IMG/VR virus record: IMGVR_UViG_3300045988_153208
Length of the DNA: 64,000 nucleotides
From: a virus
Direction: 5' to 3' (one strand)
Below the pieces are notes generated by a model. The model was not told where the DNA came from and made no database searches. It saw only the letters and a program-made list of their open reading frames with translations. Numbering within the stretch: the first letter of the stretch is position 1; each line of letters opens with the position of its first letter. Position numbers and translations under genes: made by a program. Shown in pieces: positions 24,846 through 25,718 of this stretch.

Positions 24846-24881
24846 TGCCGCTGTGGTGGAATAGGCAGACACAGCAGACTT

Positions 24882-25649
24882 TAATGTGTTTTCCACAAAT
24901 GTGGACTACGAGGATTTTCGTAGAGAGTGCCTAAGAGGAAACTCTTAGAGTAGAAGTTGGCTAAAACGGCGAAGGCAAACACAGAACGCCGTGCTAAGTT
25001 TTGGCACACGCTCTAAAATTTTTGGACAGCGTAAGATAATTTATTTAAATTAATTTTGATATAATATATAGAAAGAGATTAATTTAAAAGGAGAATTTTA
25101 TGCGAACTGATATTTTAGAACGAAAAAATGAAATATTACAATGGATAGATGAAAATTAGTCTAAAGCTTATATGGCTAGAGAATTAAATTGTAATCCGAA
25201 AACAATTAATTCAGTTCTTGCTAAATTAGGTATTGATTATTCTGGAAATCAAAGCGGTAAGGGGTAGTCAAAATCAAATAATAATTATATGCCATTACAA
25301 GAATATTTAGATTCTAGTTTAGATATTCAAAGTAATAAAGTAAGAAATAAATTATTACGAGAAGGATATAAAAATTATCAATGTGAATGTTGTGGTATGA
25401 CTGAATGGTTAGGGCAACCTATTCCATTAGAATTACATCATAAAGATGGTAATAGAAATAATAATGTTTTAGAAAATTATTAGTTATTATGTCCAAATTG
25501 CCATGCATTTACAGATTCTTATCGTGGTAAAAATTGTGTCAAATAAATGTGTAGAGACTATATACCAACCACCTAAGTCATTTGATATGGTGAAGACATA
25601 GTCCAGACTACAACACAGTAATGTGGCTATAGTGATATAGAGTAGTACG
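24882..25649 (+). mobile_element. Group I intron (768 nt) with internal HNH homing endonuclease gene, at the classic tRNA-Leu(UAA) anticodon site
   Basis: 5' splice site after U34, intron ends in G (...GTAGTACG); candidate P3 pairing GGACTA (5' core) / TAGTCC (3' core); candidate IGS AGAGT; GC-rich structured flanks. Confidence 0.6.
25100..25546 (+). CDS. HNH homing endonuclease (intron-encoded; 3 in-frame TAGs)
   Basis: MRTDILERKNEILQWIDEN...QCECCGMTEWLGQPIPLELHHKDGNRNNNVLENY-LLCPNCHAFTDSYRGKNCVK. Confidence 0.65.
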
Positions 25650-25718
25650 AAAATCTGCCGACCCTAAAGTCGTACCGGTTCAAGTCCGGTCAGCGGCACC
25701 ATTTATCATAATAGAGGA

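Follow-up and report, generated by a model that had tools for sequence, protein, structure and literature searches.

A split tRNA gene was identified in a 64,000 nucleotide (nt) stretch of viral DNA, presented as one strand, from the IMG/VR virus record IMGVR_UViG_3300045988_153208 (the whole stretch is referred to below as the window). The gene, tRNA-Leu(UAA), consists of two exons, which lie on the plus strand together with all other elements of the locus described here. Exon 1 (24847-24881) contains the 5' strand of the acceptor stem, the D arm, the 5' strand of the anticodon stem and C32, U33 and U34, and its 3' end reads ...GCAGACTT. Exon 2 (25650-25701) starts with AAAATCTGC... and contains A35, A36, the 3' strand of the anticodon stem, the variable arm, the T arm, the 3' strand of the acceptor stem and an encoded CCA. 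The exons are separated by 768 nt (24882-25649), the last base being G. When joined they form an 87-nt cloverleaf, which was called tRNA-Leu(UAA) by the program ARAGORN; its anticodon stem (GCAGA/TCTGC) has 5 bp, and its variable arm is long and of the Leu type. The insert is very probably a mobile group I intron, of the type known from bacterial tRNA genes, inserted between U34 and A35 and carrying an HNH homing endonuclease gene.

The position of the junction was established by comparison with related contigs and loci, designated here by L numbers. L116 and L190 have an uninterrupted tRNA gene with the junction ...GACTT/AAAATC..., as predicted, and because these alleles show the exact intron-less junction the splice site could be fixed at U34/A35. 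The exons of the window are collinear with the two alleles and show no substitutions, only a 1-nt difference in the length of the D-loop. The register CTTT/AAA, with anticodon UUA (an ochre suppressor), was rejected: the intron would not end in G, and the intron-less alleles read CTTAAAA. An earlier note on this DNA had placed a 768-nt insert with a final G after U34 of tRNA-Leu(UAA), at the site of the classic cyanobacterial and plastid intron (34/35); its exon coordinates and insert proved exact by the sequence and by ARAGORN on the spliced product, and the insertion point was borne out by the intron-less junctions. The GC-rich structured flanks that it described were also found, the G+C content being 0.38-0.48 in the structured flanks of the intron and 0.20-0.28 in the open reading frame (ORF) and neighbouring DNA. 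In the unspliced window the split gene was detected neither by ARAGORN with default settings nor by the Rfam tRNA model; ARAGORN with introns allowed found the gene and assigned its anticodon wrongly.

The identification of the insert (24882-25649) as a group I intron of the bacterial tRNA (IC3-like) type is well supported by a family-specific covariance model, a partial match to the Rfam group I model RF00028 and covariation. The best RF00028 match, at 25458-25628, spans the conserved GTAGAGACTA and GAAGACATAGTCC elements and the paired regions P8 and P9; it reached 23.6 bits, the gathering threshold being 50, and a second match reached 11.8 bits. The earlier note had named the failure of a covariance model to find a group I core as a result that would speak against an intron, and read literally this score is such a result. 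However, among 16 related loci only L058 (71.5 bits), L069 (62.8 bits) and L071 (50.3 bits) passed the RF00028 threshold, several relatives without an ORF failed, and no match was obtained in a scan of the intron of the Agrobacterium jumbo phage Atu_ph07. Since most of the ORF-less relatives fail, the model is insensitive to this subtype; the low score of the window is attributed to this low sensitivity and to the 547-nt insert in P6, and it was not taken as a refutation because the ORF-less relatives and Atu_ph07 were mostly missed as well. In a 2026 survey of tRNA introns in bacteria, too, a second model had to be used, gpI_bact_tRNA.cm (PMC13011429).

The training set of a further covariance model, R1, consisted of 19 related viral introns and excluded the window, L041 and L013. 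R1 matched the window at 25469-25649 (110.8 bits) and 24922-25075 (51.2 bits), with no further match in the 64 kb and none in the intron-less loci L116 and L190. L041, a twin of the window intron lacking the ORF, scored 172.3 bits. A secondary structure read from the window sequence, comprising P2, P3, P4, P6, P7 (pseudoknot), P8, P9, P9a and P9b, was tested on alignment A1, which holds 24 distinct introns with the variable P1 and P6 loops trimmed. In this alignment 93.5% of the cells were paired, compared with 27-39% when the partners were slid by 1-3 columns, and 34 of the 55 pairs showed changes on both sides. RNAalifold, run with no imposed structure, recovered P3, P4, P8, P9, P9a and P9b. 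P7 is invariant across A1 and its support is that of conservation. All invariant core positions of the family (62/62) are present in the window.

The 5' strand of P1, ACUU/u (24878-24882), contains the 5' splice site, located after U24881, and pairs with the internal guide sequence AGAGT (24924-24928) through a U24881.G24925 wobble. The guide had been proposed in the earlier note; it is supported by a GAG invariant in 24/24 introns and by a register shared with the relatives. The P1 loop holds an insertion (24883-24923) folded by ViennaRNA into two hairpins, 24892-24896/24901-24905 and 24906-24912/24917-24923, and two hairpins of other sequence occupy the same position in L013. Another guide, TTAGAGT (24944-24950), which would give a 7-bp P1, was rejected: it overlaps the 3' strand of P2 and is not conserved in L013. 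P2 (24929-24951) forms a hairpin whose loop, L2 (24938-24941), is a GAAA tetraloop, with an A bulged out at 24949; eight of the nine P2 pairs are changed on both sides among the introns.

P3 is formed by GTTGG (24956-24960) and CCAAC (25565-25569), with 5/5 pairs covarying and 100% of the cells paired among the 24 introns. The pair GGACTA/TAGTCC, previously suggested as P3, could not be retained: TAGTCC (25599-25604) is the 3' strand of P7, with GACTA (25556-25560) as partner, and GGACTA (24903-24908) belongs to the variable insertion of the P1 loop and is missing in L013, whereas the real P3 covaries. P4 (24966-24992) pairs ACGGCG (24966-24971) with CGCCGT (24987-24992) and shows U-A to A-U and C-G to U-A exchanges. 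The 5' strand of P6, TTTGGCACA (25000-25008), pairs with the 3' strand TGTGTCAAA (25535-25543); the helix encloses the ORF, and its 3' strand overlaps the last three sense codons (C V K). All P6 pairs (8/8) vary on both sides in the 24 introns, and L041 has a different stem, AAATAATAGG/CCTATTATTT, at the same position.

The 5' strand of P7, GACTA (25556-25560), lies in the conserved GTAGAGACTA, matches the Rfam consensus AGACUA and pairs with TAGTC (25599-25603), forming a pseudoknot with P3; this 3' strand lies in the conserved GAAGACATAGTCC, which comprises the junction J8/7 plus P7 and matches the RF00028 consensus. P8 (25570-25592) contains the motif CCTAAG...TATGG, which we take, from established knowledge of the motif, to be an 11-nt receptor for GNRA tetraloops; the motif is invariant and the distal pairs of P8 covary. 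P9 (25607-25646; ACTAC/GTAGT) covaries and encloses two GNRA hairpins, P9a (25614-25625, loop GTAA) and P9b (25627-25640, loop GTGA). The terminal guanosine (omega-G, 25649), after which the 3' splice site is placed, is G in 24/24 introns, and the junction is confirmed by the intron-less alleles. The earlier description of the intron as canonical goes slightly too far: P3-P7, P4, P6 and P8 of the core are all present, but P5 is reduced to a 15-nt loop (24972-24986) closed by P4, and P1 is a helix of 5 bp around a 41-nt insertion. Subgroup IC3 is a provisional label, given from the Azoarcus sequence and from the frequency of IC among bacterial tRNA introns, and the reduced P5 is atypical for it. 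In the 2026 survey 81% of bacterial tRNA introns were IC (PMC13011429).

A perfect sigma-70 consensus promoter (TTGACA, 17 nt, TATAAT; 12/12) lies at 24568-24596, approximately 250 nt upstream of the split tRNA gene. Directly upstream of the gene is a TTGCTT-17-TATTTA element, conserved in L041, L116 and L190. No terminator was found in a scan of 24500-25900.

The P6 loop is occupied by an ORF (25100-25546, stop codon TAA at 25544-25546) predicted to encode an HNH homing endonuclease of 148 amino acids (aa), with a Shine-Dalgarno-like sequence AAGGAG (25088-25093) 6 nt upstream of its start. The protein has an N-terminal helix-turn-helix and a C-terminal HNH/zinc motif, visible in the translation as CECCG...ELHHKDGN...N...LLCPNCH. 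It matched HNH families of PHROG (E=3e-27 and 2.8e-26) and the Pfam helix-turn-helix family CENP-B_N (25.0 bits, above the cut-off of 21.2); a sequence search of the PDB returned no solved homolog. Orthologs were found in the P6 loop of related introns, with full-length identities of 75% (L013), 71% (L003), 69% (L020) and 67% (L019). The motif CxxC...HH...N...CPNCH is conserved in these orthologs, and the ORF of the window has no frameshifts. These features suggest that the HNH endonuclease gene is live.

The window also contains a free-standing paralog at 4463-4921 on the plus strand, 52% identical over the full length and with three in-frame TAG codons, and further free-standing HNH domains at 6076-6273 and 15033-15197. 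A paralogous relationship with free-standing copies, as claimed earlier, is therefore confirmed, yet the closest kin of the intron gene are other intron-borne copies (67-75%). The paralog ends within the first 10 nt of tRNA-Leu(UAG) (4912-4996), an arrangement that recalls the HNH enzymes of the T5/BF23 tRNA region, to which the HNH domain had its best DNA matches. A DNA search of INPHARED gave no relative of the whole locus, the only matches being to the HNH domain at about 70% identity; this domain has about 70% DNA identity to BF23 hegA/F-TflIV and to other HNH genes of T5-like and jumbo phages.

The HNH ORF contains in-frame TAG codons at 25157-25159, 25265-25267 and 25481-25483 and is open only if TAG is a sense codon. 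On the plus strand of the window most of the long ORFs carry 1-9 in-frame TAG codons, and reading through TAG increases the ORF content of this strand from 9,834 to 14,939 aa. A tRNA(CUA) of the amber-suppressor type is encoded at 17770-17841 (labelled 'tRNA-Pyl (cta)' by ARAGORN). The TAG positions of the HNH gene align with Q/E/R/Y/T in relatives, with Q in the paralog and in orthologs, some of which have no TAG codons; one TAG lies within the conserved motif ..EN(Y/F/L)-x-LLCPNCH, where a paralog and an ortholog have Q. TAG is read as sense in this phage, most likely as Gln. Since the ORF holds three TAG codons, the enzyme would be made only when the tRNA(CUA) is active. ORF calling with the standard code 11 would fragment many genes in the window. 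A delay of intron endonuclease expression by stop-codon recoding has already been proposed for the TGA-recoded Agate phages, and the TAG-recoded endonuclease would be an added example of a selfish element tied to a phage genetic-code switch.

Three allelic states were found among close relatives of the locus from the same IMG sample, in which the flanks and the order of the tRNA genes are conserved: an intron with the ORF (window, L012 and L051), an intron without the ORF (L041, in which P6 holds about 116 nt of different sequence) and no intron (L116 and L190, with 93-94% identity over about 420 nt across the junction and the same gene order). Between the window, L051 and L012 the two ribozyme segments show 100% identity, and L041 differs at one base (220/221 positions match), a level above the 86-98% identity of the flanks. 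L013, an unrelated contig, has a ribozyme 88-91% identical to that of the window, placed inside a tRNA-Leu(UAA) gene that is a different one, and in L040 and L063 only short remnants of the ORF are left in the intron. The combination of three allelic states with a ribozyme conserved above its flanks is the classic pattern of homing, and the intron is evidently mobile; the act of homing itself is what we infer from this pattern. The idea that the 1-nt D-loop indel (GGAATAGG vs GGAAT-GG) marks an intron-linked resistance to the endonuclease was rejected, L012 having both the intron and the shorter D-loop.

By its sequence, the tRNA precursor folds into a group I ribozyme through the P1 pairing (ACUU/u with AGAGU), P2, the P3/P7 pseudoknot, P4, P6, P8 and P9, with the GAAA of L2 presumably docking into the 11-nt receptor in P8, as in known group I introns. 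By analogy with the same introns, an external guanosine would attack after U24881 and the freed exon 1 would attack after G25649, joining the exons into a functional tRNA-Leu(UAA); the 5-bp anticodon stem could assist this step by holding the exons together. The HNH enzyme, translated from its own ribosome-binding site in the P6 loop and only with an active phage suppressor tRNA(CUA), would, in the manner known for HNH homing endonucleases, cut or nick an intron-less tRNA gene during co-infection, and repair from the intron-bearing copy would spread the intron. The earlier claim of a group I intron with an HNH gene in tRNA-Leu(UAA) was sustained by the family-specific covariance model, the covariation, the intron-less and ORF-less alleles and the HNH family matches.

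Several observations weigh against this reading. Besides RF00028, which stayed below its curated threshold in the window, the Pfam models HNH_3 (19.4 bits, cut-off 24.8) and HNH (16.5 bits, cut-off 21.4) were both under their curated cut-offs. The covariation was obtained with P1/P6-trimmed constructs and with a structure derived from the window sequence itself. P1 has only 5 bp and encloses the two-hairpin insertion, and a run of AGAGAG permits a second P1 register, favoured by the minimum-energy fold. With P5 reduced to a loop, the usual docking partner of the L9 tetraloop is missing, and a canonical P10, the pairing of the guide region with exon 2, was looked for and not found. An intron with such a reduced P5 may need a protein helper. 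In a stricter form of this idea the fold is a real ribozyme, but the reduced P5 and the short, interrupted P1 make the RNA alone too unstable to splice, so that splicing in the cell requires help, either from a host factor or from the protein of the intron itself, which would serve as a maturase. The P1, P5 and P10 observations favour this alternative, as does the overlap of the 3' end of the ORF with the 3' strand of P6, 5-10 nt from the J6/7-P7 core, through which translation and folding may be coupled. On the other hand, the reduced P5 is common to L013 and L041, and P5 is also short in L050 and L078, which is compatible with persistence in several lineages; L041, without an ORF, keeps both ribozyme segments with one base changed, which argues against dependence on the intron's own protein; and the other tertiary elements, namely the GAAA of L2, the 11-nt receptor in P8 and the two GNRA loops in P9, are intact. 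We consider an obligatory helper unlikely.

That the intron splices and is now immobile, the HNH ORF being a decaying pseudogene with three stops, seems highly improbable. Under the standard bacterial code the ORF is indeed broken at 25157, 25265 and 25481, and loss of the ORF does occur in the family, as remnants in L040 and L063 and completely in L041. However, all three interruptions are TAG, with no TAA and no TGA, in a window in which most long ORFs contain in-frame TAG and a tRNA(CUA) is encoded; one of them falls in the conserved LLCPNCH motif region at a position occupied by Q in a paralog and an ortholog; and the reading frame is kept along the whole length that is shared at 67-75% identity with the orthologs. 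It is extremely unlikely that the gene is a dead tRNA pseudogene, with an insert that no longer splices and a phage that uses the tRNA-Leu of its host. Such a view could draw on the sub-threshold Rfam score and on splicing being predicted from sequence, but the exons form a perfect cloverleaf and carry no substitutions relative to the intron-less alleles, every one of the invariant core positions is kept, and the ribozyme is better conserved than its flanks. Moreover, no other tRNA-Leu(UAA) was found by ARAGORN in the window, which is A+T-rich (33% G+C).

The mobile intron proposed here shares its host gene, insertion site and overall P1-P9 layout with the classic cyanobacterial and plastid tRNA-Leu intron, and 34/35 in tRNA-Leu is a common intron site in bacteria (PMC13011429). 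Introns of the cyanobacterial/plastid type splice only if their exons pair in the anticodon stem (Zaug et al. 1993, as cited in PMC3984707); the corresponding stem is intact in the tRNA-Leu of the window. The classic introns lack an ORF and are regarded as inherited vertically, whereas the window intron belongs to a phage genome, has an HNH gene within P6 and differs in its reduced P5, its large P1-loop insertion and its two-hairpin P9. Its P7-P8 core sequence appears to resemble the Azoarcus type more than that of Anabaena. The Azoarcus tRNA-Ile(CAU) intron, of subgroup IC3, has been characterised structurally, including by a crystal structure. Like the window intron it is a compact bacterial tRNA intron in which a GAAA L2 and an 11-nt P8 receptor occur together, and its core, GUGUAGAGACUA...CCACCUAAG...UAUGGUGAAG-CAUAGUCC, is nearly the same as that of the window; it differs in the tRNA, the position in the anticodon loop, its full P5 and the lack of an ORF, the window intron being 768 nt long with an ORF in P6.

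The tRNA-Leu(UAA) introns of Bacteroidota described in 2026 (PMC13011429) interrupt the same tRNA and contain a homing endonuclease of the HNH family. They are chromosomal, or so binned, and use the standard code, whereas the window copy lies in a phage tRNA array and has a TAG-sense ORF. Introns of lytic phages that come with a homing endonuclease, and are present in some relatives and absent from others, are known from the DNA polymerase I-HmuI/II introns of SPO1/SP82, from Twort and from td, nrdB and nrdD of the T-even phages; these introns are of other subgroups and interrupt protein-coding genes, unlike that of the window. The T-even phage introns belong to subgroup IA2. The free-standing enzymes F-TflI/II/IV of T5/BF23 resemble the free-standing paralogs of the window in being HNH proteins encoded among tRNA genes; they are not intron-encoded.

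A deliberately narrow search of IMG/VR with the core motif GTAGAGACTA-N(4-16)-CACCTAAG returned 78 viral contigs. In 49 of them the motif was inside a tRNA-Leu(UAA) split at exactly U34/A35, and the introns of this tRNA-Leu(UAA) set were 195-878 nt long. The tRNA-Leu(UAA) of Atu_ph07 (L079, MF403008.1, locus 1253-1614, about 112890-113251 of the record on the complementary strand) contains a 278-nt intron that scored 124 bits with R1; it is unannotated in GenBank, where a 'hypothetical protein', AUZ94936.1, is called across its 3' part. This cultured phage offers a ready experimental system. The Lak-B1 and Lak-C1 megaphages gave 77 and 61 bits with R1 and have split tRNA genes according to ARAGORN, their tRNA type being uncertain. 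None of the introns in the 49 contigs, in Atu_ph07 or in the Lak megaphages is annotated. Introns of this kind had been called rare in phages in the earlier note, which holds for the literature and fails for the sequence data, where at least 49 IMG/VR contigs and Atu_ph07 carry them.

Of the tRNA-Leu introns that bear an ORF, about half have the HNH gene in the P1 loop, and the proteins encoded there are 32-50% identical to the window HNH. This placement, right after the 5' splice site, was seen in L001, L007, L010, L029, L031, L033, L035, L037, L044, L061, L062, L064 and L075. The occurrence of HNH genes in either the P1 or the P6 loop suggests that endonuclease genes have entered the same ribozyme repeatedly and independently.

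Other viral tRNA genes were also found to be split. In L072 (IMGVR_UViG_3300031920_000439) an intron of the same type interrupts, according to ARAGORN, a tRNA(UCA) at U34/C35; exon 1 ends with ...GCGGTCTT, exon 2 starts with CAAAACCGC, and the anticodon UCA reads UGA. Intron-split tRNA(UCA) genes were called by ARAGORN with less certainty in L053 and L073. If an opal-suppressor or code-4 tRNA has to self-splice, genetic-code switching could become linked to ribozyme activity. Viral tRNA-Met/Ile2(CAT) genes (L006, L015, L018, L023, L028 and L046-L048) contain Azoarcus-like introns about 200 nt long, L015 giving two separate intron matches, and a 757-nt intron is present in tRNA-Leu(CAA) of L039 and L049. 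Beside the tRNA arrays of two loci, a ROOL RNA (L066, 2936-3535, 304.7 bits) and a drum RNA (L069, 2850-2956, 75.8 bits) were found; an Rfam scan of the window matched neither.

The core motif was also present in at least 120 bacterial genome contigs. Among bacterial introns at 34/35 of tRNA-Leu(UAA), R1 gave 135-136 bits for Rhizobium and 119 bits for Niveibacterium. The Azoarcus-like tRNA(CAT) introns of about 204 nt scored 108 bits in Rhodocyclaceae and, with other Betaproteobacteria included, 102-117 bits; tRNA introns of Patescibacteria scored 51-78 bits. The nearest relatives in bacterial bins were metagenome-assembled genome contigs of Prevotellaceae and Bacteroidaceae, with tRNA-Leu(UAA) introns of 681-688 nt scoring 126 and 118 bits, in agreement with the HNH-bearing introns described for this tRNA in Bacteroidota in 2026. 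By these matches the window intron is a member of the bacterial tRNA-intron family.

According to a 2014 review of bacterial group I introns, every phage intron known at that time interrupted a protein-coding gene, although phages have many tRNA genes. No later report of group I introns in phage tRNA genes was found in the literature searched, many subscription papers being beyond reach. The kind of element is known, and its setting in a phage tRNA appears to be unreported; the window locus is a clean counter-example to the statement that phage introns avoid tRNA genes. Standard tRNA finders miss such split genes, with the consequence that counts of phage tRNA genes come out too low; moreover, as happened in Atu_ph07, part of an intron can be annotated in error as a hypothetical protein. 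A tRNA-Leu intron that carries an endonuclease gene and is itself carried by a phage would also provide a concrete vehicle of horizontal transfer in the debate on ancient versus transferred tRNA-Leu introns.

As a tentative extension, which we hold to be possible rather than probable, the tRNA arrays of phages may form a large reservoir, so far unrecognised, of mobile tRNA group I introns and act as a vector that moves them among phages and between phages and hosts. If so, the scattered distribution in bacteria of the tRNA-Leu(UAA) intron, which is supposed to be ancient, could be explained by phage-host traffic, and introns in suppressor-type tRNA(UCA) genes could allow ribozyme splicing to gate a phage code switch. 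Homing in the phage of the window would then itself be gated by its code switch, since TAG has to be suppressed for the mRNA of the endonuclease to be translated.

Elsewhere in the window, a cluster resembling RNA repair or quality-control genes (29058-30587, 35368-36108, 37796-38593 and 40480-41865) comprises a Ro-like RNA-binding protein (phrog_850, E=6e-136), a NinI-like phosphoesterase, a nucleotidyltransferase and an RNA ligase (phrog_968, E=1.6e-59). This cluster and the 25 tRNA genes, considered jointly, suggest a defence against host anticodon nucleases. An 830-aa ORF at 30758-33250 is free of in-frame TAG codons and matched no PHROG family at 1e-5. Two further tRNA candidates were noted: 15637-15707, called 'tRNA-??? 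anticodon (aa)' by ARAGORN, and 8108-8177, matched by the Rfam tRNA model at 35.8 bits with no ARAGORN call. Among the tRNA genes, three ORFs with an N-terminal CxxxCxxC were spotted by eye as radical-SAM-like, at 12451-13716, 21002-22402 and 22383-23759, containing nine, six and one in-frame TAG codons, respectively.

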